From positions 1,120,001 to 1,184,000 of the forward strand of contig CAWFXL010000001.1 in NCBI GenBank assembly GCA_963819815.1: DNA of 64,000 nucleotides. The letters are read 5' to 3'. The DNA is from an uncultured bacterium (GTDB lineage: Bacteria > Babelota > Babeliae > Babelales > Babelaceae). The translations under genes were made by a program, and so were the position numbers. Position 1 is the first letter of the stretch, and each line of letters begins with the position of its first letter. Below the pieces are notes generated by a model that saw nothing but the letters and a program-made list of their open reading frames with translations, had not been told where the DNA came from and did not search any database. Positions 2,703-62,602 of this stretch are shown here, in pieces.

Positions 2703-4667
2703 ATGTACATCACCGTCAAACTCCTTAACGGGTTTAAAGAATCACTTACCTATAAAGTTCCCCACGGATGGTCCTCAAAAGAACTAGAGGGAACCCTTAT
2801 CAAAGTACCTCTTCAAAAGAGGTATGAATTCGCATTCGTTGAAAAGTGCTTTACCCATCTTGATAGCAGAGCTACCTACGTCATTAGAGAAGCAGCCGCC
2901 ACCGACCTTATCCCTACTGATCCCCATTACATGTCGTTCTTAACCAAGTTAAGTGCATACTATGCTCTTGATAAGTTCACCTTTATACGGCGGTTAAAGC
3001 ATTTTTTTGAGGAAAAGAAGCAAACGCACGAGATTATCTTATCTGATTCATTTGAACCAAAGAGCACGACGCTCACTCAGGAACAACAGACTATTGTTAC
3101 TACCTTGTCTCAAAAAATTACTGAAGGGGTATACTACCCTTCCTTGCTCCATGGAGTTACTGGATCAGGAAAAACTGAAGTCTATAAAGCGCTTATCCAA
3201 CATGCTTGGCAAGAGGGGAAAGGAGCCTTACTGCTTTTACCCGAGGTATCGCTTGCAGCTCAATTCTCCCGCCTTTTGAAAAAGCAGCTGCCGAGCTCTA
3301 TTTCTCTGTTTAGCTTTCACTCAGCTACCAGTGCATCAGAAAAACGTGCCCTCTGGGCACATCTTATGGAAAATAGGCCTGCCGTTATTCTCGGTGTACA
3401 TCTACCTATGTTGCTGCCTCTTCCGCAACTTGGTCTTATTATTATCGATGAAGAGCATGACCCTGGTTACCAAGAAAAGCGTCATCCTAAAGTAAATATG
3501 AAAGAAGCAGCACTCTTACGAGCCCAATGTTCCTCTATCCCGGTCATTGCCGGCTCTGCCACACCCTCTATAACTTCGCTTTATAATGTAGAACATAGAG
3601 GCTGGCATCTCTTTACGTTAAAAAAACGTTTTGCCGGTTCATTTCCCAATGTTCGGGTAGTTAAACTTACGCATAAGAGTCCGCGAAAACATTTCTTTAT
3701 CAGTACTGAACTTGAAGAAGCTCTCAAAAAGCAGCTTGAGAAAAAAGAGCAGACCATCATATTTCTCAATAGACGAGGGTACTGCTTCTTTATTCAATGC
3801 AAATCGTGTGGTACGGTCCCTCACTGCGTAAACTGCGACGTGAGCCTCACCCTTCATAAAAATGATACATTACGCTGCCACTATTGCTCCTATGCTATCG
3901 CGCTCCCTTCTGAATGTAGCTCATGTAAAAAAACGGTCTTCCTCAAAAAGGGAATCGGCACGCAACAAGTCGTCACTATTCTTGAGAAACTATTTCCTCA
4001 CGCTCGCATAGCTCGAGCTGATCTTGACACTACCATCGATAAGAAAAAATGGACTGAGACCATGAAGGCATTCGAGGCAGGAGAAACCGATATTCTTGTC
4101 GGCACTCAAACGATTACCAAAGGGTACCATTTCCCTAAAGTTACCTTAGTGGGGATCCTCTGGGCAGATATTAACTTAAGTATTCCGATGTACAATGCAG
4201 CAGAAGTTACTCTGCAGCAGCTCATTCAGGTAGCAGGACGAGCAGGACGACAATCACCTGACAGTCAAGTCATCGTACAGACCCTGATTGATCATCCTAT
4301 ATTTCAGTACTTGAATGAGCAGGATTATACAAACTATTACGCCCATGAAATTGAAAAAAGAAAGGAGGTTATCTATCCTCCTTGTATCCGATTTGCTGAA
4401 ATAGAGTGTAAGCACGAAAATGAATCGATCGTTGAGCAAGAAGCCAAGCGTTTAGCACAGATACTTAAAAAGTCTGCACTGCAGGACAGAAAAAAGATCA
4501 CGATACTCGGGCCAAGCACACCACCCGTATCAAAAATTAAAAAGGTTTATTCTCGGAAGATATATATAAAGGCTGAGTCGATAGATACTATTATAGGCAC
4601 CTATCGTGCAATAGATCGCAGCTCATTCAAATGCGCGCTCTACTTTACCCCAAATCCCCTTTCATAA
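2703..4667 (+). CDS. priA: Primosomal protein N' (replication restart helicase)
   Basis: GVTGSGKTEVY, DEEH, GSATPS, FLNRRG, four CxxC zinc motifs, QVAGRAGR. Confidence 0.97.
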   Translation: MYITVKLLNGFKESLTYKVPHGWSSKELEGTLIKVPLQKRYEFAFVEKCFTHLDSRATYVIREAAATDLIPTDPHYMSFLTKLSAYYALDKFTFIRRLKHFFEEKKQTHEIILSDSFEPKSTTLTQEQQTIVTTLSQKITEGVYYPSLLHGVTGSGKTEVYKALIQHAWQEGKGALLLLPEVSLAAQFSRLLKKQLPSSISLFSFHSATSASEKRALWAHLMENRPAVILGVHLPMLLPLPQLGLIIIDEEHDPGYQEKRHPKVNMKEAALLRAQCSSIPVIAGSATPSITSLYNVEHRGWHLFTLKKRFAGSFPNVRVVKLTHKSPRKHFFISTELEEALKKQLEKKEQTIIFLNRRGYCFFIQCKSCGTVPHCVNCDVSLTLHKNDTLRCHYCSYAIALPSECSSCKKTVFLKKGIGTQQVVTILEKLFPHARIARADLDTTIDKKKWTETMKAFEAGETDILVGTQTITKGYHFPKVTLVGILWADINLSIPMYNAAEVTLQQLIQVAGRAGRQSPDSQVIVQTLIDHPIFQYLNEQDYTNYYAHEIEKRKEVIYPPCIRFAEIECKHENESIVEQEAKRLAQILKKSALQDRKKITILGPSTPPVSKIKKVYSRKIYIKAESIDTIIGTYRAIDRSSFKCALYFTPNPLS

Positions 4668-4711
4668 AGCAGCGACCGCTGAACTTTTGAACAGTCGAAG
4701 AAGCTAGAAAA

Positions 4712-5401
4712 CTACTTTCGACGAAAGGCGAGCCTATCAAGGAAGAATTCTTGTTTGATATCACCGGTATAAAGATCTTTATTAATCCCTATAAGACGTA
4801 CTTTTAATGCGGCGACCTCTTTCTTATTGGTAGCTACAGAAGCTATTAGATCAGAAAGCTCATGCCTTCCTTTCTCATTGCGATAGGTCTCAGATGTGTG
4901 CTTCATGGCTGTAAGGGTATACTCTTGCTTATCCACTTCAAAGGTTTTCAGAAGAAGCTTTCTTTCAACATCTACCTTATCACCTGCCAAAAATGCTTTT
5001 TTCATGATCAGGTCAAACACTGGTTTGCTCACCGGCTGTCCCCCGTTAAGTACAGCAATATCCTTTTCCATTGAGGCAGCAAGAAGTCCTAACTCATCGA
5101 TATAGGTTGGATACAGGAGCTGCTTCAGCTTCTCATGGTACTGTTGATAGGAAGGAACCTGACCCTGAACCGGAACTGACAGGTTCTGCTTCTCTTTAAA
5201 AGAATCTGCCAGTTCTTTCTTCAAATCTTGAATCGCTTGCTTAACGGCCAGTTGCTTGTTTTGAACGATAAAAAGCCCCTCAATTACAGCCCCCTTTGTA
5301 ACCGCATCTGATTCAGCAGCACCTTTGGAAACGGAATGTACCTGAGCTTTTCCCTGGGCGCTACATATTCCCAGAACAAAAATGACACTATATTTTTTCA
5401 T
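4712..5401 (-). CDS. Hypothetical secreted helical protein
   Basis: 229-aa ORF with signal peptide MKKYSVIFVLGICSAQGKA and aaggga RBS. Confidence 0.7.
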   Translation of the reverse strand: MKKYSVIFVLGICSAQGKAQVHSVSKGAAESDAVTKGAVIEGLFIVQNKQLAVKQAIQDLKKELADSFKEKQNLSVPVQGQVPSYQQYHEKLKQLLYPTYIDELGLLAASMEKDIAVLNGGQPVSKPVFDLIMKKAFLAGDKVDVERKLLLKTFEVDKQEYTLTAMKHTSETYRNEKGRHELSDLIASVATNKKEVAALKVRLIGINKDLYTGDIKQEFFLDRLAFRRK

Positions 5402-5458
5402 GATCTATCCCTTTTTATTTAAGCGTACACAAACAAAAGAATCACTGTAAAGAGTGCT

Positions 5459-6421
5459 TTATAACTTATTTTTATACTGCATAGAACGCTCATCATAAAA
5501 GAAAAGTGCGACGCCCATAAAGGTAACAGCGCATGCTATGAAGAAAAGCGTTGAGAGTGGTTCGCCAAGCAACGTCCAACCAATAAGTTGAACAAAGATT
5601 GGAATCAAAAATCCAGCAAGGGCCACAAATGTTGCACTGTGCCTTTTAAGAGCATATCCATACAGCGTGTACCCAAGCACATTTCCAATAAGCGTCGTAT
5701 ACAGAAGAAAAACACTCAGCTGAGCCATGGATGAAAGCGATATAAATGGCTGCATGCTTAAAAGAGGTATATCAGCAAACGATAAGGGAGTCACGGTATA
5801 GGTTCCTCGCATTAAAACCATAGCAAGACAGAGAATGCCACTCACTCCCATAGTAAAAACATTAAACTGAAGCGGTGTTATATGCTCCTTCTTCAAGAGC
5901 TGCTGCCCCTGAATCCAACCCAGTCTACTTATGATAACTGCGGCTAAAGCGGCTAATTCAGGGTAAGATAGGATAGCAAATGCTTTAAGCTGCTCTTCCA
6001 TGGGAGACAAGCTTGATAATAGGATGAGCATCCCACAAAACCCAATCGCTATGCCTAGCCATTGTCGCCAACTCAAGCGCTCATGAAACCAAAAATATGA
6101 ATAGAGCGCTGCCACAAAGGGATCAAGTGTGCCAAAATATGCCATCTTATAAGAAGGCATATTGGCTAAGGCATAGGCTTTTAAGTTTGAAGGAAAAAAC
6201 GTTGTACACAAGGCGATAATGATCAGCCCTGCAAAAAACTGCTTAAGTACCTGCCATCGTAAGATATACCCCTCACGAGCGTAGACATACCCAGCAAGCA
6301 AAACAGATGCTGCCGCCATACGTATCCCTACAAGGAACTCAGGACTTAATGCAAACAAAATCACTTTATTGGCTGAGATGCCACTTGCTAAGAAAACATA
6401 TGCTAGGAATAGGAGCATCAT
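5459..6421 (-). CDS. DMT/EamA family transporter
   Basis: About 10 TM helices, two EamA halves (ERLSWRQWLGIAIGFCG; GWTLLGEP). Confidence 0.9.
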   Translation of the reverse strand: MMLLFLAYVFLASGISANKVILFALSPEFLVGIRMAAASVLLAGYVYAREGYILRWQVLKQFFAGLIIIALCTTFFPSNLKAYALANMPSYKMAYFGTLDPFVAALYSYFWFHERLSWRQWLGIAIGFCGMLILLSSLSPMEEQLKAFAILSYPELAALAAVIISRLGWIQGQQLLKKEHITPLQFNVFTMGVSGILCLAMVLMRGTYTVTPLSFADIPLLSMQPFISLSSMAQLSVFLLYTTLIGNVLGYTLYGYALKRHSATFVALAGFLIPIFVQLIGWTLLGEPLSTLFFIACAVTFMGVALFFYDERSMQYKNKL

Positions 6422-23749: not shown

Positions 23750-23974
23750 TCAACAAGGTACACAAAAACCATTCCCTGAACAATTGCTTCCAGGACAACA
23801 ATCACCATCACTGTCACATTTACCATCCCCTTGCTCCCAATTACATATACCAAGGGAACCTGGTCGAGACATCATAGTTTCTTCACCATAGCACTCGGCA
23901 TTGAGGGATTGGACTGAAGTAGCGATAGGAAGACTCAAAAGTGCGAGAATAATAGCTATATGTGCTGCTTTCAT
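23750..23974 (-). CDS. Secreted cysteine-rich knottin-like peptide
   Basis: Signal peptide; aaggag RBS; C-x8-C-x5-CC-x4-C-x5-C core, 8 Cys in total. Confidence 0.8.
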   Translation of the reverse strand: MKAAHIAIILALLSLPIATSVQSLNAECYGEETMMSRPGSLGICNWEQGDGKCDSDGDCCPGSNCSGNGFCVPC

Positions 23975-24311: not shown

Positions 24312-25772
24312 GTGAAAGAAAACCCCTCTATCTTAGATAAATATCCTGATTATGAAGTAACAATCGGTATGGAAGTGCATATTCAGCTCATCACGAACAG
24401 CAAGCTCTTCTGCAATAGTTCTAATGCAATTACCGATACGCCTAATGTTCATATCTGCCAGATCTGTACAGGGCAACCTGGGGTACTTCCCGTATTAAAT
24501 AAGCAGGTAGTTGTAGCTGCCGTGAAAGCCGGACTTGCGCTCAATTGTGATATTCAGCAGCGCTCCATATTTGCACGGAAGCACTATTTTTATCCAGATC
24601 TTCCAAAAGACTACCAGATTACTCAAAATGACTTTCCTATCTGCCTCAATGGGCATTTAGCTATAAAACTTCAAGATGGGTCTACCAAAAAAATACGTCT
24701 TACTCGTATTCATATCGAGGAAGATGCAGGAAAAAATATACATAGCTCCCTAGGCCATGAAAGCTTCGTTGATTTTAATCGAGCGGGAACACCCCTATTA
24801 GAAGTAGTAAGCCTTCCCGATCTCTCTAGCGCCTACGAAACGCGAGAATATCTGAAGAACCTCCGTCTTATTGTGCAATACCTACAGATCGGCACTGGCA
24901 ATATGGAAGAAGGAGCATTTAGAGCTGATACTAACATATCAGTCCGCAAAAAAGGTGCTAAAGAATTTGGTACCCGATGCGAGCTTAAGAATATAAACTC
25001 ATTTAAGTACATTTCAGATGCCATTGAATATGAAATTGAGCGGCACATTACAACCTTGGAAGCGGGGAAAAAACTCTTTCAAGAAACAAGGCTTTGGGAC
25101 ACTAAAGAGGGTGTTACCAAAGTTATGCGCTCAAAAGAAGAAGCGGTAGATTATCGATATCTTACAGATCCTGACCTTCCCTCAATTGATCTTGATCCAG
25201 AATTTATTGCCCAAATTAAAACTCAGATGCCGGAGCTTCCTTTTGAGAGGCTGACCCGCTACACCAATGATGGTCTTTCTGAATACGAAGCCGATATCCT
25301 TATTACTGATCTCTCAATAGCTCAGTTTTATGAAAAAGCCCGCACATACACGAAAAGCAAACATCTTATCAACTGGGTTCTTCGAGATTTTCTTGGGCTA
25401 CTTAAACAAGAAAAGCTGGAACCTTCAACCTGCAAAATCACTCCCGAAATGCTCGCCAAGTTAGTCGAAATGGTTGACAGCGGGGCCATTAACAATCGTG
25501 CTGCCCAAGAAATCTTTTCAGACATGGCTACTACTGGACAAGATCCACATACCATTATGGAGAAAAAGGGTCTGCAGCAGATGGGGGACACCAAAGAGCT
25601 TGAGCTCATGGTCCAAAACCTTATCAAAGAATATCCTGATAAAGCTGCCGAGCTTAAAGAAGGCCGAGACCGACTGCGCGGATTCTTCGTTGGTGAGGTT
25701 ATGAAAAAGACTCAAGGTAAAGGAAACCCTCAACTCATCAACCAAATTCTTGATTCTCTACTGAAGAAGTAG
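24312..25772 (+). CDS. gatB: Asp/Glu-tRNA amidotransferase subunit B
   Basis: IGMEVHIQL, RKHYFYPDLPK, HIEEDAGK, RCELKNINSF. Confidence 0.97.
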   Translation: MKENPSILDKYPDYEVTIGMEVHIQLITNSKLFCNSSNAITDTPNVHICQICTGQPGVLPVLNKQVVVAAVKAGLALNCDIQQRSIFARKHYFYPDLPKDYQITQNDFPICLNGHLAIKLQDGSTKKIRLTRIHIEEDAGKNIHSSLGHESFVDFNRAGTPLLEVVSLPDLSSAYETREYLKNLRLIVQYLQIGTGNMEEGAFRADTNISVRKKGAKEFGTRCELKNINSFKYISDAIEYEIERHITTLEAGKKLFQETRLWDTKEGVTKVMRSKEEAVDYRYLTDPDLPSIDLDPEFIAQIKTQMPELPFERLTRYTNDGLSEYEADILITDLSIAQFYEKARTYTKSKHLINWVLRDFLGLLKQEKLEPSTCKITPEMLAKLVEMVDSGAINNRAAQEIFSDMATTGQDPHTIMEKKGLQQMGDTKELELMVQNLIKEYPDKAAELKEGRDRLRGFFVGEVMKKTQGKGNPQLINQILDSLLKK

Positions 25773-25964
25773 TCTTTTTTACGTAAGTCTGGCGGACTCA
25801 TGATTGAGTTCCCTTCCATCAATTAGGTAAAGCCCTTGTGGCAGCTCATCTAAGAGTATTTTCACCCACCCCAAACAATTCTTATAGAAACTATTGCAAT
25901 TCAATACTAGTTTTAAATATACTATAAGTAACAATGTGAAAATATCTCATTAAAAGGAGTCATC

Positions 25965-26192
25965 ATGAAATGTATTGTAGCTTTACTAGCACTATGTGCA
26001 CTTGGTATAGCGTTCCAAGCGAGTGCTGAAGAAAAGACCAAGTATATCTGTTCGTTTGGCGGACTTACGACTGTTGAATTTGATACGAAGGAAGAGTGCT
26101 TTAAAGCATGTCTACAACCCGGTATAGCTGCCGTGTGTCAAAAAGCAAGCATCGAAACTGATATCGAAGACTCGGAAGAAGATATCTACTAA
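25965..26192 (+). CDS. Secreted cysteine-rich mini-protein (array member 1, divergent)
   Basis: aaggag RBS, signal peptide, FDTKEECFKAC motif, 4 Cys in mature part. Confidence 0.8.
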   Translation: MKCIVALLALCALGIAFQASAEEKTKYICSFGGLTTVEFDTKEECFKACLQPGIAAVCQKASIETDIEDSEEDIY

Positions 26193-26215
26193 GATTTTTC
26201 CTCAAAAAAATCTAG

Positions 26216-26241
26216 AGGGGGTGAGTTAAGTCTCATCCCCT
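26216..26241 (+). terminator. Stem-loop, probable intrinsic terminator
   Basis: agggggtgag-ttaagt-ctcatcccct downstream of stop at 26192; U-tract weak. Confidence 0.5.
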
Positions 26242-26279
26242 TACTAACTTTAAATTGTAACTACATCATGGAGAAAAAC

Positions 26280-26543
26280 ATGAACTTTCAAAACCTATTC
26301 TTCTTTGTATTATGCCTATTAGGGGCAGGGGTAACGATAAACGCTATGGGACCTCAAGGAAATTATACTTCTAAAGAGGCATGTGAAAAAAGCTGCGGCA
26401 AAAACATGTGTTATTATCATTCGCAATCAGCACCGGCACCTGAACGACAAAAAAATATTGATCCTTTAGCAATCGATATCGGTGTACGTTATTCTGTAGC
26501 ATTTATGCCAGTTGGATGGTATTGCAATCAAATCCTTAATTAA
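26280..26543 (+). CDS. Secreted cysteine-rich mini-protein (member 2)
   Basis: ggag RBS; MNFQNLFF signal; YTSKEACEKSCGKNMC...GWYC...LN. Confidence 0.85.
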   Translation: MNFQNLFFFVLCLLGAGVTINAMGPQGNYTSKEACEKSCGKNMCYYHSQSAPAPERQKNIDPLAIDIGVRYSVAFMPVGWYCNQILN

Positions 26544-26679
26544 AAGTATACTCGCAATCGGTACCGCTACTGAGAAGATTCCCGAGGAATGATACTTGCA
26601 GATGTAACTAAACTAGAGAGACACTCATCCCGACTGCAACGTAGAAAACAGTCGTATTTAAAAAAATGGAGAAAAAAAC

Positions 26680-26973
26680 ATGAAACTTCAAAATCTATTC
26701 TTCTTTGTAGTATGCCTATTAGGAGGAGTATCACATACAAAAGCTATGTCAACTAAGGAAGAATGTGAAAAAACTTGTAAAAGAAAATGCATTCCTAATC
26801 CAGTGCCTACTGGGTGGTATGTTTGCCAAGAAGGCGGATACTATTCCCGAAAATATACTCATTCTGAAGAGGGGTGCCAAAAAAACTGTAAAACCAAATG
26901 TTTTCCTGAGCCAAAACCGACTGGGTGGTCTGATTGGATCTGCGAACCAGATCCTAAATCCCCGCTCAATTAA
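26680..26973 (+). CDS. Secreted cysteine-rich mini-protein with two tandem modules (member 3)
   Basis: STKEECEKTCKRKC..PTGWYVC and SEEGCQKNCKTKC..PTGWSDWIC; 8 Cys. Confidence 0.85.
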   Translation: MKLQNLFFFVVCLLGGVSHTKAMSTKEECEKTCKRKCIPNPVPTGWYVCQEGGYYSRKYTHSEEGCQKNCKTKCFPEPKPTGWSDWICEPDPKSPLN

Positions 26974-27091
26974 AAGGAAATGCATTGACTGCAGTTTTCA
27001 AGGTTGTGATTTTGCCTTTGCTTCCTTAGTTACTTAATATAAACAAAAAAAAGGTGCCTACAGATAACGCGCCTAACATGGAGAAATCAAC

Positions 27092-27337
27092 ATGAAAATT
27101 CAAAAACTATTATTCTTTGTATCCTGCCTATTCGGGGTAATAAATGCAGAGCCTATGTATATGAAGACGTATCCTACTAAGGAGGCGTGTGAAACCAACT
27201 GCGGCAAAGAAAATATATGTTCTTATATTACTCAAGCGGCACGAGCAAAAGAAAGAGAGTCCCTTAGGCATACTGGAATAGGGATATTCGTACCTCAGCT
27301 GCCTGACGGATGGTATTGCGAAGCGGTCCTAAATTAA
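27092..27337 (+). CDS. Secreted cysteine-rich mini-protein (member 4)
   Basis: MKIQKLLFF signal; YPTKEACETNCGKENIC...GWYC..LN. Confidence 0.85.
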   Translation: MKIQKLLFFVSCLFGVINAEPMYMKTYPTKEACETNCGKENICSYITQAARAKERESLRHTGIGIFVPQLPDGWYCEAVLN

Positions 27338-27456
27338 AAGTATACTCACAATCGGTACCGCCGCTGAGAGGATCCCGAAGAATGATACTTTCAGACGTAA
27401 CGAAACTATCCCTACTGTAACTTGGAAAAAAGTGAAACAAAAACATGGAGAAAAAA

Positions 27457-27663
27457 ATGAAACTTCAAAAACTATTCTTCCTCGTATCATGCGTATTTGG
27501 AACCATAAATGTACAAGCTGTGAAACTAGAGAATGTACGAATCTCTCTTTGGAGTGGAGGTTATCCTACGAAGGAGGCCTGTGAAAAAAGCTGCAGCAAA
27601 AACCCCTGTATGAGAATGGAAGGGGGAATGGATATTCACTCTGGATGGGTCTGTCTTAATTAA
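27457..27663 (+). CDS. Secreted cysteine-rich mini-protein (member 5)
   Basis: MKLQKLFF signal; YPTKEACEKSCSKNPC...GWVCLN. Confidence 0.85.
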   Translation: MKLQKLFFLVSCVFGTINVQAVKLENVRISLWSGGYPTKEACEKSCSKNPCMRMEGGMDIHSGWVCLN

Positions 27664-27782
27664 TAAGCGAACTTGAGATAACTCTAAGGTATTTTCACGA
27701 GGCAATTGATGCTTACTTTGATGTCAAATGCCAAGTAACAATAATATAACTAATATACACACCATGCAGAAAAAGGAAAAAA

Positions 27783-27995
27783 ATGAAACTTCAAAAACTA
27801 TTCTTCCTCGTATCATGCGTATTTGGAACCATAAATGTACAAGCTGTGAAACCAGATGTGAACGTAAAAATTGATATGACGGGCGGAGGTTATCTTACGA
27901 AGGAGGCCTGTGAAAAAAACTGCGGTAAAAACTCTTGTAAGATAATGGAAGGGATCCCCGCATATGGATGGGTCTGTTTTAATTTTACGAATTGA
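27783..27995 (+). CDS. Secreted cysteine-rich mini-protein (member 6)
   Basis: Signal identical to member 5; YLTKEACEKNCGKNSC...GWVC. Confidence 0.85.
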   Translation: MKLQKLFFLVSCVFGTINVQAVKPDVNVKIDMTGGGYLTKEACEKNCGKNSCKIMEGIPAYGWVCFNFTN

Positions 27996-28109
27996 TGACT
28001 CTAGATGCCACTAAAGTATTTTCACGAGGTAATTGATGCTTACTTTGATGTCAATGCCAAGTAACAATAATATAACTAATATACACACCATGCAGAAAAA
28101 GGAAAAAAA

Positions 28110-28352
28110 ATGAAACTTCAAAAACTATTCATTTCCTTATCATTCCTATTAGGAACAATGAATCTAAATGCAATTGAAGGACCTTATGGTTCTAAGGAAC
28201 AATGTGAAGGTGCAAAACAAAGTGATTGTCAATGTTTTTATCATTCCCAACCGCCAGCACGGAGCGGTATTGACATCAGAGGCGGAATCCCTGATCGAAT
28301 GCAGGGGATGCGCAATGGATGGTATTGCAGCCAACAACAAGTTCTTAATTAA
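28110..28352 (+). CDS. Secreted cysteine-rich mini-protein (member 7)
   Basis: MKLQKLF signal; YGSKEQC...CQCFYHSQ...GWYC...LN. Confidence 0.85.
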   Translation: MKLQKLFISLSFLLGTMNLNAIEGPYGSKEQCEGAKQSDCQCFYHSQPPARSGIDIRGGIPDRMQGMRNGWYCSQQQVLN

Positions 28353-28497
28353 AAAGAGAACTAATGGGTTGCAGTAGAAATGTTTTGTCCCTCGCATGCT
28401 GTTATCCGCATCTTTAGCGCAGGCGAACAAAAACAGCACTAAATTTGCTCAAATGCAAATTCGAAGACATTTGCCTTATCTAGTTATATTTCGAGGC

Positions 28498-30273
28498 TTA
28501 TGAGCCCGCTTCCTTCTTCACAACCCTAAGGCCATACTCCTCTAGCTTCTTCGGAGCGACTGGAGTCGGAGCCTGCATAAGAGGGTCATATCCACTTTGT
28601 GTCTTTGGAAAGGCTATCACATCCCTAATTGACTTACAGTGAGCAAGAAGCATAACGAACCGGTCGATACCCAAGGCAATTCCTCCATGAGGAGGAAAAC
28701 CAAGTTCTTGCGCTTCAAGCAAGAATGAAAAATGGGATTCCATATCATCTTTGTTTAACCCAAGGAAATCAAATACTTTGCGCTGCACTTCTGGGTTGTG
28801 AATTCGAATGGAACCTCCACCAAGTTCAATCCCATTAAATACAATATCATAGGCACGAGCCTTCATTTCACCTGGTTGCAACTTTTCCCAACCTTCTTGA
28901 GGTGAGGTAAAGGGATGATGCACAGAGCTCCATTGTCCACGGGCGTCATCATACTCAAGTAAAGGGAAATCGGTCACCCACAAAAGATTTACTTCTTTGT
29001 GGTCTATAAGACCAAGTGACTCACCAAGCTGTACGCGCAAACGACCCAATTGTGTCCAAGCATCCTGATATTTGCCGGCGACGAGGAAAAGAGTATCACC
29101 TTCCCCTAAAGAGGGAATTAAGACCTTTACCTGTTTAAAAAAATCTGCTGGAAGGAATTTGGCAATAGGAGCCTCAAACTCTCCATTCTCTTTAAAGCGT
29201 ATCCAAACGAGCCCCTTTGCTCCATTAGTTAAAGCCTTGCTTACCCATCCTTCAAGCTCAGAACGAGTAAAGGCATGCTTAGCTATATGGAGGGCACCAA
29301 TTCTACCACCTTTATCAAGCACTGCTTTTAGAAAGGCTAGCGATGTTCCCTGAAAAAGAGACGTCAACTCAGTAATAGGCAAATCAAATCTTAGATCAGG
29401 CTTATCAGAACCATAGGAACTCATTGCCTTGTCATAGGTCATCCGAGGCAAAGGAAGAGAAATCTGATGGTTCATTATCGTACCAAAAATATGTGCTAAC
29501 AGTCCTTCAATGCACAACTGAATATCAGCTTCAGAAATAAATGACATCTCGACGTCAAGCTGAGTAAACTCTGGCTGCCTATCAGCACGAAGATCTTCAT
29601 CTCTAAAGCACCGTGCAATTTGCATATAGCGCTCAAGTCCGCCTGCCATGAGAAGTTGCTTATAAATCTGTGGTGATTGAGGAAGTGCATAGAATGAACC
29701 ATGATATTGACGAGAGGGCACAAGAAATTCCCGTGCACCTTCAGCAGTATTTTTTGTAAGAATAGGAGTCTCAATCTCATAGAAATTTTGCTCATTAAAA
29801 TACTGCCGCATAGCATAGATAATCTTATGGCGCATTGCTAGATGGTGCTGCATTTCAGGAGTTCGCAAATCAAGATACCGATATTTTAAACGAATCTCTT
29901 CATCCACGTGAGCTGCTTCATCAAGTTGGAAAGGAAGTGCTTTTGCTTTGTTTAAAAGCACCACCTCATGCACCTGTAATTCATATTTACCTGTTGGAAT
30001 CTCAAGGTTAATCGTTCCAGCAGCGCGGTGAACTACCGTTCCTTTTACAGAAATAACATACTCAGAACGCAATTGATCGGCTAATGCATGAGCCGTTGCC
30101 GAATAATCCGGACTAAAAACGAGCTGCATAAGACCTGTACGATCACGCAGATCCACAAAAATAATAGTCCCGTGATCGCGCCGTTTGTTAACCCATCCTG
30201 AAAGTGAAATCGTTTTCCCTACAAGATCCCCGTGTACCTGGCCGCAGCCAACGGTACGTTCATAATAATTCAT
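28498..30273 (-). CDS. aspS: Aspartate--tRNA ligase
   Basis: RRDHG, YRYLDLR, LPQSPQ, CFRDEDLRADRQPEFTQLD, GGGSIRIH, PPHGGIALG. Confidence 0.98.
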   Translation of the reverse strand: MNYYERTVGCGQVHGDLVGKTISLSGWVNKRRDHGTIIFVDLRDRTGLMQLVFSPDYSATAHALADQLRSEYVISVKGTVVHRAAGTINLEIPTGKYELQVHEVVLLNKAKALPFQLDEAAHVDEEIRLKYRYLDLRTPEMQHHLAMRHKIIYAMRQYFNEQNFYEIETPILTKNTAEGAREFLVPSRQYHGSFYALPQSPQIYKQLLMAGGLERYMQIARCFRDEDLRADRQPEFTQLDVEMSFISEADIQLCIEGLLAHIFGTIMNHQISLPLPRMTYDKAMSSYGSDKPDLRFDLPITELTSLFQGTSLAFLKAVLDKGGRIGALHIAKHAFTRSELEGWVSKALTNGAKGLVWIRFKENGEFEAPIAKFLPADFFKQVKVLIPSLGEGDTLFLVAGKYQDAWTQLGRLRVQLGESLGLIDHKEVNLLWVTDFPLLEYDDARGQWSSVHHPFTSPQEGWEKLQPGEMKARAYDIVFNGIELGGGSIRIHNPEVQRKVFDFLGLNKDDMESHFSFLLEAQELGFPPHGGIALGIDRFVMLLAHCKSIRDVIAFPKTQSGYDPLMQAPTPVAPKKLEEYGLRVVKKEAGS

Positions 30274-57752: not shown

Positions 57753-60119
57753 TTATGCGCTTTGCGCAGCTGGTCTTTGCACGATCGGTTTTATTCCGAT
57801 CGGTGCTTGCTTAGAGACAAGAACTCGCTTCAGTTTATGGGGATCATAAAGAGGGATAGGAGGTTCTTTTTTCTGTCCTTGTAAGATTTTAAGGCCACAG
57901 AGGGAAGTGTCGGTATTCGTTCCTGCGGCAAGAAATCGATCAATTGTTTTTTGTTCGCTTTCATCTTTAAGAAAGAGTCGATAAATCGGATCGCGTGGTA
58001 CCAAGGGTGTTTGATCTCTCGTAACAAAGTTTTTATGGTCGCACAGGTATTCGTTCGTTTTATTCGTCCAACGAGATCTGGGCTCTAAGATGGTTGGCAT
58101 AACAAAAACGGTAAGATTTGTGGTGATCGTTTCTGCTTGGGTACCTCTAAAAAATGCACCAAAGATCGGTACATGTCCTAAGATGGGAGTGTAGCTACCA
58201 AAATCAAGATTATCGACACGAAGAAGGCCACCCATCACAAGAATCTCTCCCGAGTTGAGTGTGGCTGTGGTTGTTAGTTCCTGTGTACGCCGAGTTAAAT
58301 TAGTCGTGTTGGTGTACCTATCATCTTTAAATCCTACAACTATTCTAAGACGGGTATCTGAAATAACGTGAGGAACCACATTGACGGAAAACGTTGCTGG
58401 TAAGTCGACTATAGGAATCGTGGCAGTACCATTGGTGGTGATAACAAGATCACCTGTCGTACGAATCATAGTGCTTGAATCAAGCAATCCCTCCATGTGA
58501 TTCTTGACGGTCACATAGGGATACGAATTTATTCTTGCAGATACTACCGTATTAAGAATTTCAAGGAGTCCAAATATACCTGGGGTCTTAGGATCGTTAA
58601 GAGATATCAACATAGATCCTGAGGCAATTTGGCTTGGAACATTGCCAGGCCCAATAACCTGTAGAAGGTCGCTTGCAAGCTGGGTAGGTGGTATTCCCAG
58701 TACCGAGACTACGGGAGTAATATGGGATGCTAAGTATTGCACCCCATGAGGAAGTATTGAAGAATCTGTTTTACTTCTGATGGTGCCTGAAACATTGGTT
58801 GTTTGGTCATAGGCAAACTCGACGACAAGGACTTCTAAGAGGACCTGCGGTTGAGGAGTGTCGAGCTGCTCTATAAGCTTTTTAATGATGTGCCAATCTT
58901 TCTGGCGTGCTGCAATGAGGAGTCGGTTGCCTGCATTAGTGGCTATAAAGTCTAATTTTTGTACCTCCTCAAATCCTTTTTGCTCAATGGCAATATCTTC
59001 TGTTTGGAGGGCTGGTTTGACAAGAGTTGACTCGAGAGCAGCGATTGCCACACCCTGAAATAGGGGCGGTTTTTCACTTTCAGCAGTAGCTTGCTCTCCT
59101 GTAGGGAGTGCTGCGGCAACGATACGGTTAAGTATAGGAGCCGTTTTGACACTATCAAGATAGTTAAGGTCATAATAATGGAGAATAGATTCTCCAGCAT
59201 CTTCTTGGAGATCAAGGCTATCTTGTATAAAATCGATGATCCTATCTATATTTGCTTTACGGCCCATGAGTATGACGCCATTTCTTGCGGGATCTGCGAC
59301 CATTTTGGTATCTTCGGTGATAAAATTAAGGCCATCAGCTTTAGGACCTTTTCGAATAAAAGTTCGTATCGTATCAGTTCCTGCTGCCATCTTAAGAGAT
59401 TCAAAGACGTTCACGACCTCTTGTGCAGGAAGGTACTTGAGAGGCACATAGGCTACATGTTCTTTCATTCCTTGATTGTCGAACTCTTTGAGTAGCTGTC
59501 CGATAGATGCGGCATGCGAAGCTTTGTCGATGATAATGATGGCATTACTTCTTGGATCAAACATGAGTGAGGCATTGTAGGTGAGGAGCTGTTTCAACAT
59601 CATAGACAAAGGATGAGAATCTTTTTCTGCAACCTCGGGAACCTTTAAATTTTTAAGATAATGAATGTAGATGATGCGCCCATCATCATGCGGCAACTCC
59701 TCAGGAAGAACTCCTGCATAGACAGGTAAGGGTTCCCGGTTAATAGCTCCACCGTCGACACTTGCATTACGCACAATAGTAAAGTTTTGCTCTTGCTTAA
59801 ATAGGCTAAAGCCTGATAATTCTAAGAACGTCTTTAAAAGGTTCCATGCAGCATCTTGCGAACTCTCTTTTTCTTGTGGTAGATAGGTGATCTGTTGTTG
59901 TTTGAGCATCTCAAGATCAGCAGCTCTTTGCGGGAACAGAAGATTTGATCCTGACGGGGCCATTTTTTCAAGAAGGTCTATCAGCGATTTCTTTTTAAAA
60001 GAAAAGGGCACTTTCCTATCCGGCTCATGAGAATGCTCATTAGACGACTCTGCATGGAGCATCATGCCTACACTGAGCATGGTCCCCATGACCCAAACAT
60101 GATTCCATCGTACATTCAT
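57753..60119 (-). CDS. T2SS secretin GspD-like, second paralog
   Basis: Signal peptide, N-domains (DPRSNAIII), LDTPQPQVLLEV, GG.L, P.LGHVPIFGAFF. Confidence 0.88.
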   Translation of the reverse strand: MNVRWNHVWVMGTMLSVGMMLHAESSNEHSHEPDRKVPFSFKKKSLIDLLEKMAPSGSNLLFPQRAADLEMLKQQQITYLPQEKESSQDAAWNLLKTFLELSGFSLFKQEQNFTIVRNASVDGGAINREPLPVYAGVLPEELPHDDGRIIYIHYLKNLKVPEVAEKDSHPLSMMLKQLLTYNASLMFDPRSNAIIIIDKASHAASIGQLLKEFDNQGMKEHVAYVPLKYLPAQEVVNVFESLKMAAGTDTIRTFIRKGPKADGLNFITEDTKMVADPARNGVILMGRKANIDRIIDFIQDSLDLQEDAGESILHYYDLNYLDSVKTAPILNRIVAAALPTGEQATAESEKPPLFQGVAIAALESTLVKPALQTEDIAIEQKGFEEVQKLDFIATNAGNRLLIAARQKDWHIIKKLIEQLDTPQPQVLLEVLVVEFAYDQTTNVSGTIRSKTDSSILPHGVQYLASHITPVVSVLGIPPTQLASDLLQVIGPGNVPSQIASGSMLISLNDPKTPGIFGLLEILNTVVSARINSYPYVTVKNHMEGLLDSSTMIRTTGDLVITTNGTATIPIVDLPATFSVNVVPHVISDTRLRIVVGFKDDRYTNTTNLTRRTQELTTTATLNSGEILVMGGLLRVDNLDFGSYTPILGHVPIFGAFFRGTQAETITTNLTVFVMPTILEPRSRWTNKTNEYLCDHKNFVTRDQTPLVPRDPIYRLFLKDESEQKTIDRFLAAGTNTDTSLCGLKILQGQKKEPPIPLYDPHKLKRVLVSKQAPIGIKPIVQRPAAQSA

Positions 60120-60130
60120 GGCTATCGTCC

Positions 60131-62602
60131 TTAAGCAACTAACTCAGCAACTTCGCCGGGAGTAGCCTTTTTTGTTATAGGGGGCTCCGGACGTTTTGTT
60201 GGTCTACGTGCTTCCCTGCGACGCTGTCTTGAACCTTTTATATATTCTGCATCAGGTGGGTTGCTTACCTGGCTCAAGTATTTTGGTAGAACTTGTTCTG
60301 CTGGATTTGTACCTTTAAAGAAGAGCCGAGTAATCGGATCTTTTGATTCACCAAAAATTGCGAAGTCATCAATGTCACGCTGACCTTTGCGAATTTTATC
60401 TGCAGTATACACATCAAGGCCACCACGCAGTTTTGGATGAACGATCGTAGGGCAGATAAAAATGGCGATATTAGTCGTTGTTGGCATACGGCTTTTACTA
60501 CTAAAGAATGAACCTATTATAGGAATTCGCGACAAAATAGGGGTACCCGTAACGATGTCATTTTGTGTCGTGCTTGCAAGCCCTCCAATTACCAGGACCT
60601 GTCCACTTTCTAAATTGGTATTGGTATTTACCCGTCGTGTAAGACGCGTATTAGAGTTAGCATCAACAAAGGTATTGATATCTACAGCGACTTGGAGACT
60701 AAGCCGCTGTAGGGAGCTTAAACGTGGTATCATCTGCACCTGCAGTGTTGCCGGAAGATCGACAATTTCAACAGTAATTACCCCTGCAGCTCCTGGAATT
60801 GCGTTACCTACAACGCGGCGGAGCTCCTGGTTTGTGAGTGTTGCTTTCTGATTATTTGTCGTTATCAGGTACGGGTGTGAAAGAATTTTGCTATATAGTG
60901 CCGTATCTAAGATTTGTAAGAGACCAAATATACCTGGAGTTGAAGGATCATTAATTGAAACAATCGTTGACCCTGGAGCAAGCAATGAAGTGAGTGAAGG
61001 ATTGCTGGCATTGGCACCGGTAATTATTCCCAGTAAATCTACATCAAGCTGTGGCGGAGTTGCCCCAAGTACGTTATTGACGGCTGTTATGTTTGAGGAA
61101 AGAAGTTGAAATCCATTAGATGGAAGATTCGTTGCGGTCTTATTACGGGTGGTTCCTGCAATAAGTTTTTGTCGCGTGCCGGTGACATCTGCGATAACTA
61201 CCTCAAGAATAACATAGGGCTGTGGCTTATCAACTGCTTCTATGAGATCCTTAAGCCTCACCCAATCATCTTGTAATGCTGCAACAATTAGCCTGTTGCC
61301 TCCAGTAAAGATTTTTTGAGAGCCAAGGCCTGTAGGGAGGAAGCCTCCAGTTGCTTCAAGTGTAATTTCCTCTGTGGTCGTTTTTATATCAACCTCTTTT
61401 ACTTCTTCAGCTGCGATGACGACGCCTTGGAAATACCGTTCTGGGCCTGCCGGTTGTCCTGCTGTTGCTTGAGTTCCTGTAGGTGGGAGTGGAGAAACAA
61501 CTTGATTTAACACTGTTGCAAATTGAGTGGCATCGAGGTACTGAAGGTCATAGGAGTGGAGGACCGACTTACCACTATCAGGTGCTGTATCCATATAGGT
61601 TGATACAAAATCAGCAATTCGCTCCACCGATGATTGGCGGCCCATGAGGATAATATTGTTTTGTCGTGGATCTGCTACAAGAACGGTATGTTCTGCAAAG
61701 CTTGATAAGGATTCTGTACGGGAATCATGCCGTATAGAAGGTCCAGATCCGTCACCTCCAGCGGCTGCACGGAGAGACTCAAATATTTTTACGACATCTT
61801 GGGCCGGTGTGTTATTCAGATGAACGACCTGAATAGTTTCATGGAACCCGCTATGGTCAAGTTCATCGATGATACGCATAACTGAGGCTATCGTGTTTGC
61901 TTTATCCGTAATAATTATAGCATTTGTTTTTTGTTCAAACACAACGGGAGCACCGGGAGTAAGCATGTCTTTAAGGATGCGCGCAATGGCGTTGGTATCC
62001 TTGTCCTTTTCATCAGGTACGCGCAGATTTCTTAGATAATAGATGTACCGTATATATTCTTGGCTATCGGGAAGCTTATCCGGTTTCACATTTGCAAAGA
62101 TAGGTAAAACTGAACGGCTGATACCCGGCTCTAGAGGTTTGCCAACGCGCTCGATGGAATATAAGAAGGGCTTCTTTGGACTTATTGCAAAGCCAGAGAG
62201 CTCGAGAAAAGTACTGAGGAGCTGCCAGGCCTCTTCAATCGGGATTTCCATACGCCCTTGTGGTCGGTAGGTGATCGTTTGCGCCTTCAGTATTTCAAGG
62301 TCTGCTGCATTTTGGGGCAGAATAATATTGGCCTCCTTTTTAAGAGCCAATTCGCCGATAATATCGACTAAACTTTTCTTTTCAAATGAAAAATTGATGA
62401 ACCCTTTTTGGGGTTCTTTCTTTTGAACAAAATCGAAGGGTTCATCTTTTAGCGGTACATCTTGAAGTAGAGAATTTGGGGTGGGTGTATCATCTTTTGC
62501 ATAAGCGGCAAAAGATAAAGCAACCCCTACAAGGAGCATAGAAAGAACCCGACGAGAAAAGAATTGCAGGTCGATCATAATGATCCTAACATCGTTATTC
62601 AA
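60131..62602 (-). CDS. gspD: T2SS secretin GspD
   Basis: EQKTNAIII, DPRQNNII, DKPQPYVILEV, GQVLVIGGL, PILSRIPIIGSFF, IFICPTI. Confidence 0.9.
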   Translation of the reverse strand: MNNDVRIIMIDLQFFSRRVLSMLLVGVALSFAAYAKDDTPTPNSLLQDVPLKDEPFDFVQKKEPQKGFINFSFEKKSLVDIIGELALKKEANIILPQNAADLEILKAQTITYRPQGRMEIPIEEAWQLLSTFLELSGFAISPKKPFLYSIERVGKPLEPGISRSVLPIFANVKPDKLPDSQEYIRYIYYLRNLRVPDEKDKDTNAIARILKDMLTPGAPVVFEQKTNAIIITDKANTIASVMRIIDELDHSGFHETIQVVHLNNTPAQDVVKIFESLRAAAGGDGSGPSIRHDSRTESLSSFAEHTVLVADPRQNNIILMGRQSSVERIADFVSTYMDTAPDSGKSVLHSYDLQYLDATQFATVLNQVVSPLPPTGTQATAGQPAGPERYFQGVVIAAEEVKEVDIKTTTEEITLEATGGFLPTGLGSQKIFTGGNRLIVAALQDDWVRLKDLIEAVDKPQPYVILEVVIADVTGTRQKLIAGTTRNKTATNLPSNGFQLLSSNITAVNNVLGATPPQLDVDLLGIITGANASNPSLTSLLAPGSTIVSINDPSTPGIFGLLQILDTALYSKILSHPYLITTNNQKATLTNQELRRVVGNAIPGAAGVITVEIVDLPATLQVQMIPRLSSLQRLSLQVAVDINTFVDANSNTRLTRRVNTNTNLESGQVLVIGGLASTTQNDIVTGTPILSRIPIIGSFFSSKSRMPTTTNIAIFICPTIVHPKLRGGLDVYTADKIRKGQRDIDDFAIFGESKDPITRLFFKGTNPAEQVLPKYLSQVSNPPDAEYIKGSRQRRREARRPTKRPEPPITKKATPGEVAELVA

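Follow-up and report, generated by a model that had tools for sequence, protein, structure and literature searches.

What might a bacterium use seven small, cysteine-rich, exported proteins for, when their genes stand one behind the other between gatB and aspS? The question is raised by a 64,000-nucleotide (nt) stretch of DNA (the window, G000:C1:1120001-1184000) from a member of the Dependentiae, whose genome (G000) comprises 1.64 Mb in two contigs and is 88% complete. Seven plus-strand open reading frames (ORFs; m1-m7) of 70-97 codons, all co-oriented and separated by spacers of 87-192 nt, fill this interval, hereafter called the slot. Dependentiae are known only as intracellular parasites of protists and are enriched in exported proteins without known relatives (ORFans) (PMC6561590). 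These parasites are widespread, and almost nothing is known of how they handle their hosts. To our knowledge, repertoires of disulfide-rich mini-proteins typify the venoms and immunity of eukaryotes and have rarely been described in bacteria. An earlier note on this DNA had proposed that the seven genes are a real family of even-cysteine mini-proteins with Sec signals, and selection on orthologs, profile ranking and the lack of any Pfam or NCBIfam match bear this out. The family has not been described before, is very rare and has no place among known structures, and its evolutionary behaviour is documented below, mainly by comparison with the nearest relative among the collected genomes (G001, GatB 96% identical). 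The locus makes a compact case, joining a small scaffold without a fold match, a conserved founder-type gene, two independent expansions at one slot and apparent cassette turnover between close relatives.

Architecture, rarity and kinship of the mini-proteins

All seven ORFs were recovered between borders confirmed by Pfam, and the earlier description of co-oriented genes that each have a ribosome-binding site (RBS) and a Sec signal holds. The RBS (AGGAG, GGAGA or AAGGAA) lies 7-12 nt before each of the seven starts, and every product has the Sec-type features of a positive n-region, a hydrophobic core and an x-x-A site with small residues at -3 and -1. Signals and cleavage sites were judged by eye against the -3/-1 rule, which gave the putative sites ASA/EE, INA/MG, TKA/MS, INA/EP, VQA/VK (twice) and LNA/IE (slash, cut). 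Since an upstream in-frame ATG overlaps the RBS in m2 and m5, the second ATG (26280 and 27457) is the likelier start of these two genes; with these starts, the signal opening M(K/N)xQ(K/N)L is common to m2-m7, the six of seven that had been named. A lipobox-like L/F-V-S-C is found within the hydrophobic core of m4-m6, for which a lipoprotein route is possible.

The mature units measure 45-75 residues and are near neutral or acidic, not cationic, by residue count. The motif (Y/F/M)x(T/S)KExC had been described as common to all and is indeed seen in 7/7 proteins, and four cysteines are present in each of the eight mature modules (m3 has two). The spacing C-x3-C-x3/4-C, given before as the usual form, stands overall but not for m4 (C-x3-C-x5-C), m7 (C-x7-C-x-C, with the second cysteine displaced) or m1 (C-x15-C-x3-C-x8-C). 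The third and fourth cysteines of the m2-m7 modules are 11, 12, 13, 14, 30, 32 or 37 residues apart, matching the range reported earlier, and m2-m7 close as described with GW-x(1-3)-C, followed by one to nine residues up to a terminal Asn (LN in 4/6). The two modules recognised in m3 form a direct repeat (D7, 73 nt, 71% identity), close in GWYVC and GWSDWIC, and have Pro-rich, Cys-closed loops (CIPNPVPTGW.. and CFPEPKPTGW..). The claim that the loop is hypervariable survives in part: its length and sequence vary, but the long loop keeps positions such as (V/I)DIG(I/V) that are shared with distant homologs in an alignment of 12 proteins. Among the paralogs, nucleotide identity of the upstream-plus-signal part differs from that of the mature part in 6/15 pairs (p < 0.05, uncorrected); the contrast between constant signal and variable rest is clear for some pairs, such as m6/m7, m5/m7 and m3/m4, and absent in others.

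The terminal Asn is present in 13/13 known proteins of the m2-m7 type (the 12 aligned and P0049), usually preceded by Leu or Ile, with codons at, for example, 26538-26540 (m2) and 28347-28349 (m7). It also ends the four twin-CX3C paralogs and the m1 ortholog of a second array described below (G003; L032 4205-5323, minus strand). Because m3 and m6 retain the residue although the TTAATTAA palindrome at their stop is disrupted, the Asn looks like a signal at the protein level.

None of the seven proteins is matched above cut-off by Pfam or NCBIfam, and no confident match to a characterised domain family came from PDB-sequence or fold searches either. m2-m7 form a very rare, undescribed family: a profile including outside members finds matches in only two of 261 Dependentiae genomes (G000 and G001), to which about five further metagenome proteins can be added. 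When searched exhaustively against 1.84 billion representatives, the m2-m7 profile gave 12 matches at E <= 0.001, namely four proteins of G000 and G001, four new small proteins of the same architecture (P0035, P0036, P0038 and P0040) and four weak matches to the motif only; a search of 5.8 billion proteins gave 10 clusters and added P0049. A motif scan of 185,579 species genomes produced 240 pattern matches, three of them confirmed by tblastn, one being G001; the Collinsella and Bifidobacterium matches extend no further than residues 1-14 and were set aside as noise from the signal peptide. The 79 pattern matches of a JGI metagenome scan include one relative, G001's own contig. With m4, a word-based homolog search gave zero candidates and the ESM Atlas no usable match; with m1, the ESM Atlas gave two unnamed clusters at 0.76-0.77, under the lead threshold. 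Four soil runs contain related contigs, too few for statements on habitat or population: those of X1 have the G001-type arrangement, X2 has one contig of 196 nt on 26606-26801 with one difference, and X3 and X4 have one contig of 151 nt each, identical to 28125-28275.

m1 is distributed differently from m2-m7. A profile of its orthologs matches a single gene in G000 and in each of 8/9 other genomes of the genus, the genome without a match (G007) being 70% complete with gatB on a short contig; across the family (41 genomes) there are further matches in G012, which belongs to another genus (2.7e-19), and, more weakly, in G011 (0.0017). In the 5.8-billion-protein collection m1 has 31 homologs (E <= 0.01, 106 candidates), none with a Pfam domain and a single one with a name, 'hypothetical protein'. 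Four cysteines and one Gly are invariant in 22 aligned m1-type sequences. The earlier picture of one uniform repertoire must be given up, since m1 is a genus-wide single-copy ortholog with a ratio of non-synonymous to synonymous substitution rates (dN/dS) of 0.04 and is tied to the rest by a 14-column motif only; hhalign places this tie, (F/Y)-x-T-K-E-E-C-x-K-x-C, at 87% probability. The two layers are nevertheless likely to be of common origin, with the helix as the shared part. Among the 14,454 ORFs of the genome, m3, m4, m5 and m6 rank next after m1 (E 0.013-0.52) with a profile built from the m1 orthologs of other genomes only, and with the m2-m7-only profile the top of 172 ORFs is taken by the m1 orthologs of congeners and by further peptides from their slots; these rankings indicate that the seven-gene set exceeds chance. 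The partner cysteines differ by type: m1 has one before and one after the helix, m2-m7 have two after it, and a four-member family of G003 has a CX3C before it.

AlphaFold2 (AF2) models of the mature proteins, built from family alignments, put the shared motif in a helix and then a strand in both m1 and m4. The m4 model (predicted local distance difference test score, pLDDT, 78.7) has a short strand, a helix at 11-18 on TKEACETNC, a strand at 22-27, a helix at 29-40 in the insert and a strand at 54-59 on GWYC; the m1 model (pLDDT 64) is strand-strand-helix-strand. Foldseek against the PDB gave best E values of 1.8 (m1 model) and 1.9 (m4 model) and no convincing neighbour; its top row for m1 was a mini-protein designed as EEHE, which repeats no more than the topology and was set aside. 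A wide VIA-align search gave best Z scores of 3.5 for m1 (root-mean-square deviation 3.9 over 53 residues) and 2.3 for m4 (5.0 over 45 residues), and none of 24 Foldseek chains realigned at Z >= 2. The PDB sequence search returned two rows for each profile (E 0.21-8.4), on the short helix motif only: boophilin, dendrotoxin K and two unrelated chains.

Turnover and selection at the gatB-aspS slot

The m1 ortholog lies in or at the slot in the eight congeners read; in G002 other genes intervene before gatB. With a filter for ATG-started ORFs of at least 40 codons and at least three cysteines on the same strand, the m1 ortholog alone passes at the slot of G002, G004, G005, G008 and G009, and G006 has two such small Cys-rich genes. 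The slot of G003 (L032 = G003:C4:579000-586900, 4205-6285, minus strand) holds seven small Cys-rich ORFs with signal peptides, consisting of the m1 ortholog, four twin-CX3C paralogs ending ..IN or ..PN and two others; the array includes a tandem pair of 63-residue twin-CX3C peptides with four residue differences. The slot appears to be a nursery of small Cys-rich exported genes, and the G003 array is independent of that in G000.

G001 has five genes where G000 has seven; m1, m3 and m7 are conserved, and m2 and m5 are without a positional counterpart. The BLAST block of gatB and m1 (24312-26323) reaches the beginning of the m2 signal in G000, whereas in G001 it passes straight to the ortholog of m3. 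The m3 block extends through the m4 signal to the CX3C motif, where similarity collapses, and collinearity is restored from the start of m6 to aspS; the block ends lie in signal-coding repeats. Counted in 30-nt windows against the positional counterparts, m4 retains 101/210 nt at 27128-27337 vs 419/450 in the 450 nt upstream, and m6 retains 82/150 nt at 27844-27993 vs 378/390 in the 390 nt downstream, i.e. mature parts that are 48-55% identical are set amid flanks that are 93-97% identical. m7 is identical in 210/210 columns (28174-28383; mature part and 31 nt past the stop) in a block that is elsewhere about 93.5% identical; a recent exchange between lineages or a constraint at the nucleotide level is possible. 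An antisense ORF (28164-28439, 91 residues) overlaps this stretch and is probably a by-product.

Pairwise Nei-Gojobori estimates from these very short and partly saturated sequences gave dN/dS values of 0.04-0.64 for the mature parts of the eight gene pairs in which they differ; the ninth pair (m7) is unchanged, with 0 changes in 59 codons. The mature part of m1 has six synonymous changes and one non-synonymous change relative to G001 (dN/dS 0.04; gatB and aspS, 0.05), and m1 is under strong purifying selection. The corresponding counts for m3 are seven and five (dN/dS 0.16), and its modules a and b compare at dN/dS 0.20 with saturated dS. For m4/o24, m5/o56 and m6/o56 (o24 and o56 being ORFs of G001) the mature dS reaches 1.3-2.2 at dN/dS 0.11-0.39, against a reference dS between the two genomes of 0.15-0.34 for gatB, aspS and the AAA gene. 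In the youngest paralog pair, m5/m6, the signal is unchanged in 21 codons and the mature part has dS 0.42, dN 0.27 and dN/dS 0.64, which a split by hand divides into 0.45 for the scaffold and 0.69 for the variable parts.

The fast diversification that had been claimed is thus seen in gene content and in some mature regions, which change fast between genomes with GatB 96% identical, but not in m3 and m7. An excess of non-synonymous change in the mature regions, named beforehand as a test, was not found, dN/dS exceeding 1 in none of the comparisons. Synonymous divergence rises along with non-synonymous divergence, so that cassette replacement, old paralogs and conversion fit better than positive selection on point mutations, and nothing indicates a mutagenic device. 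Together with the repeats D1, D6 and D8-D10, this raised synonymous divergence points to a birth-and-death process, in which unequal crossing-over, 5' conversion and replacement of cassettes by old paralogs or alleles would take place at the repeated 5' and intergenic sequences.

Locus borders and neighbouring genes

The features of the locus are collected in the table. A fold of the region behind m1 (26193-26262) reaches -22.6 kcal/mol (z -4.35; 0/200 shuffles as stable), and this strong hairpin suggests that m1 is probably its own transcription unit. The hairpin was missed by a simple terminator scan, and the simple promoter and terminator scan of the locus was no better than shuffles (seven promoter-like sites vs 7.6 expected). 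The G+C content of the cluster (0.38; window, 0.41) gives no sign of foreign origin. Searches of G000, which included a profile ranking of its 14,454 ORFs, found no further copies of the family elsewhere in the genome.

Table. Positions in the window of the mini-protein genes, the repeats between them and the genes that border the slot
Feature	Position	Strand	Evidence
gatB, left border of slot	24312..25772	+	Pfam GatB_N 2.4e-114, GatB_Yqey 5.1e-43; present in 10/10 genus genomes
m1, founder-type exported four-Cys protein, 75 residues, signal 1-21, acidic tail	25965..26192	+	ORF, AAGGAG upstream
11-bp G+C-rich hairpin after m1, terminator-like, without clear U tract	26215..26242	+	RNA fold
m2, long-loop member, 87 residues from second ATG; ORF opens at 26268	26280..26543	+	ORF, RBS
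m2 3' end and downstream repeat; second copy at 27300-27408 behind m4	26506..26615	+	direct repeats D6 (77 nt, 81%), D10 (36 nt, 89%)
m3, two-module member, 97 residues; module a 26746-26838, module b 26839-26970	26680..26973	+	ORF, RBS, repeat D7
m4, long-loop member, 81 residues	27092..27337	+	ORF, RBS
m5, short-loop member, 68 residues from second ATG; ORF opens at 27445	27457..27663	+	ORF, RBS
Intergenic repeat unit in front of m6, repeated at 27998-28109 in front of m7	27671..27783	+	direct repeats D9 (57 nt, 88%), D8 (57 nt, 100%)
m6, short-loop member, 70 residues	27783..27995	+	ORF, RBS
m7, long-loop member with shifted second Cys, 80 residues	28110..28352	+	ORF, RBS
aspS, right border of slot	28498..30273	-	Pfam tRNA-synt_2 1.6e-119, tRNA_anti-codon, GAD

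The ten larger ORFs at 18.8-37.7 kb were assigned by Pfam to RNase E/G, a Branch-family glycosyltransferase, ParA, GatB, AspS, two AAA ATPases and a TIM-barrel protein, with two giving no Pfam match. No modifying enzyme, leader protease, dedicated exporter or immunity-like protein was recognised among them by Pfam, in agreement with the earlier view that this is not a locus for ribosomally synthesised and post-translationally modified peptides (RiPPs). The two AAA-ATPase genes follow aspS at 30433-31872 (minus strand; hydrophobic, signal-like N-terminus) and 32658-34313 (minus strand), and G001 has the first of them and an ORF of 126 residues with a similar N-terminus.

Divergent from gatB lies an ORF of 74 residues (23750-23974, minus strand) with a signal peptide and a knottin-like C-terminal pattern, C-x9-C-x6-CC-x4-C-x6-C-x2-C, which scores below threshold for the Pfam family Toxin_12 (spider ion-channel inhibitory toxin; E 0.0068, 17.5 bits vs a cut-off of 21). 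Within the family, 9/40 other genomes carry homologs (E 2.8e-12 to 9.8e-4), which adjoin gatB in G002, G003, G005 and G006; with m1 on the other side, gatB has a conserved gene for a small Cys-rich exported protein at either end. A crude scan of the genome for small ORFs with a signal peptide and at least four cysteines listed 21 candidates, six of them cluster members, m7 having escaped the filter. The others include G000:C1:68242-68421 (minus strand), 264201-264512 (plus strand) and 280161-280316 (minus strand), and among these candidates are a Cys-rich ORF of 59 residues ending ..CCN and a Gly/Tyr-rich ORF of 103 residues.

Possible functions and likeness to known systems

We tentatively propose, with a confidence that stops a little short of even, that the mini-proteins are disulfide-braced exported binders or inhibitors of protist host proteins, protease inhibition being the most concrete candidate activity. 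This proposal draws on the fast turnover in a phylum of protist parasites, the non-cationic peptides, the Kunitz-like helix discussed below, the two-headed m3 and the presence of secretins. The precursor would pass Sec and be cut by signal peptidase I after x-x-A, and its cysteines would be oxidised outside the cytoplasm by a pathway of the VKOR/thioredoxin type; a VKOR homolog (87.6 bits) and thioredoxin-fold proteins (eight matches, three over cut-off) are encoded in G000 and make extracytoplasmic disulfide formation plausible. The mature chain would fold into an alpha/beta unit of 45-75 residues with two predicted disulfides, in which, according to the AF2 models of moderate confidence, the two cysteines of the N-capped helix (F/Y)-x-(T/S)-K-E-x-C-x3-C would staple it to neighbouring strands. 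The partner cysteines of m2-m7 would lie downstream, with an insert of 11-37 residues displayed between them, followed by the GW-x-C closure and the terminal Asn. We further propose that m1 is the founder of the slot, with a function fixed genus-wide, and that tandem duplication within a single lineage gave rise to m2-m7, either out of m1 or next to it; the repeated RBS, signal-peptide and intergenic sequences would then have allowed the array to be remodelled by unequal crossing-over and conversion, whole mature cassettes being gained, lost and replaced. The host compartment might be reached via a secretin-type system or vesicles, and four secretin genes and ATPases of the type II secretion system kind in G000 are possible outer-membrane routes. 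Three of the four secretin-domain genes cluster, at 57753-62602 of the window (minus strand) and G000:C1:1184989-1185459.

Several observations weigh against this proposal. DsbA and DsbB have no match in G000 (88% complete), the m1 model has a pLDDT of just 64, the signals were judged by eye, and disulfide pattern, outer-membrane passage and expression are all presumed. The resemblance to Kunitz inhibitors covers 14-18 residues and is not significant (boophilin and dendrotoxin K at E 0.78-5.8), and Pfam lists no Kunitz_BPTI row for the seven proteins at E up to 10 and matches no inhibitor family. With no dN/dS above 1, an arms race is not supported, and the conservation of m1, m3 and m7, perfect in the last, would equally suit a housekeeping role in the envelope. 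Such a role in the periplasm or envelope, as disulfide-linked envelope components or as periplasmic folding or metal-handling factors whose expansion reflects neutral drift in copy number, is the main alternative, though it strikes us as somewhat unlikely. It would account for the single copy of m1 beside housekeeping genes in 8/9 other genus genomes and its low dN/dS, for the identity of the m7 mature part in G001 and the conservation of m3, and for the lack of dN/dS above 1, and a Sec signal by itself reaches the periplasm only. A core part of the envelope should not, however, be confined to two of 261 Dependentiae genomes and 10 clusters among 5.8 billion proteins, as m2-m7 are, nor differ in gene content between genomes with GatB 96% identical; the even number and fixed spacing of the cysteines suggest internal rather than cross-linking disulfides, and no Pfam envelope family, including the chlamydial Cys-rich ones, was matched at E up to 10.

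Fast turnover of tandemly varied genes for small exported peptides braced by disulfides is also found at some bacteriocin loci, and the present genes share these traits; yet a role as Sec-dependent bacteriocin-like peptides against competing bacteria in the same host or habitat is improbable, for neither the slot nor the ten scanned neighbours include an ABC exporter, a processing protease or a membrane gene of immunity type, the peptides are acidic or close to neutral, and the phylum is described as host-dependent and intracellular (PMC6561590). Tandem rows of short genes that agree at the front and vary at the rear would also be expected of RiPP precursors or targets of a diversity-generating retroelement, to which we give a very small chance: the shared front is not a leader but an ordinary Sec signal with its x-x-A site, none of the ten neighbours is a modifying enzyme, protease or exporter, RVT_1 has 0 matches in the genome (88% complete), and the variable parts differ by indels and segment replacement, not by adenine-directed substitutions. 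That the ORFs are chance non-coding frames or decaying pseudogenes is hardly credible. Most members are unnamed or missing in public annotation, but frame, RBS and signal are intact in 7/7, the mature parts of m1 and m3 have more synonymous than non-synonymous changes (6 vs 1 and 7 vs 5, respectively), and the cysteine frame and terminal Asn are kept in homologs of other assemblies. If the proposed host-directed inhibition is true, the family would add a new class to the bacterial effectors and could supply stable binding scaffolds; if the envelope role is true, what is left is one more orphan exported family in the Dependentiae.

In organisation, the closest parallels are conotoxins, defensins and legume nodule cysteine-rich (NCR) peptides, which combine a constant signal, a fixed cysteine frame, a variable segment between cysteines and tandem duplication. 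The present genes share the constant signal (6/7), the variable mature part on a cysteine frame and the tandem order, with a signal dS of 0 vs a mature dS of 0.42 in m5/m6; they differ in being bacterial, of the Sec/signal peptidase I type, without a pro-region, not cationic and without dN/dS above 1. The CXC of the cysteine-stabilised alpha-beta defensins occurs in m7 only (CQC), and AtDEF-like was matched by m1 only, at E 0.041 and 14.6 bits vs a cut-off of 25. We regard the likeness to these eukaryotic families as one of organisation, not of descent. A bolder version of our proposal, which we consider doubtful, makes the locus the Dependentiae counterpart of venom and plant-defence repertoires: the slot would re-wire one CX3C-helix scaffold, its partner cysteines shifting to either side of the helix, expand it independently in different lineages and swap whole mature cassettes at the signal sequence. 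The products, with the knottin-like neighbour, would be injected or leaked into the protist and block host proteases or channels, the Asn serving as a sorting or processing mark for a step of export or maturation.

Kunitz domains are small, exported units with six cysteines and a CX3C helix at the C-terminal end, both of whose cysteines are in disulfides, and multi-headed forms exist. The motif aromatic-x-(S/T)-x-E-E-C-x3-C of the mini-proteins resembles that C-terminal helix (Kunitz/BPTI, PF00014), and the m2-m7 profile matched a five-domain Kunitz protein over profile positions 25-42; this protein, boophilin and dendrotoxin K were the sole look-alikes that bear a name. Each module here has four cysteines, with one or two cysteines and 10-40 residues after the CX3C, and Kunitz membership is ruled out by the profile and the four-Cys frame. 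For the m1 and m4 models, which are small and of moderate confidence, neither Foldseek nor VIA-align listed a Kunitz chain.

A four-Cys unit with the helix motif, ...C-x4-C-x-D-x7-G-S-(F/Y)-x-(S/T)-L-E-E-C-E-x2-C, recurs in cargo repeat proteins of the Bacteroidota-type type IX secretion system (P0039, P0041 and P0042), and as in m1 a Cys-bearing hairpin stands ahead of the helix; Pfam sets the motif stretch of P0041 at Kunitz positions 35-53. These are large multi-repeat proteins with Por_Secre_tail, whose E values of 9e-7 to 2e-4 are summed over four to six short repeats, and a kinship suggested by the shared unit is unproven. A full-text literature search, in the portions of text it made available, returned no account of such peptides in Dependentiae. 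The exported ORFans of Chromulinavorax (PMC6561590) are of the same phylum and, like the present proteins, exported and without known relatives; they belong to other protein families, whereas the mini-proteins of the gatB-aspS slot are much smaller (45-75 mature residues) and are marked by a defined four-Cys helix scaffold, a founder-type gene found genus-wide at a fixed slot and an invariant terminal Asn.

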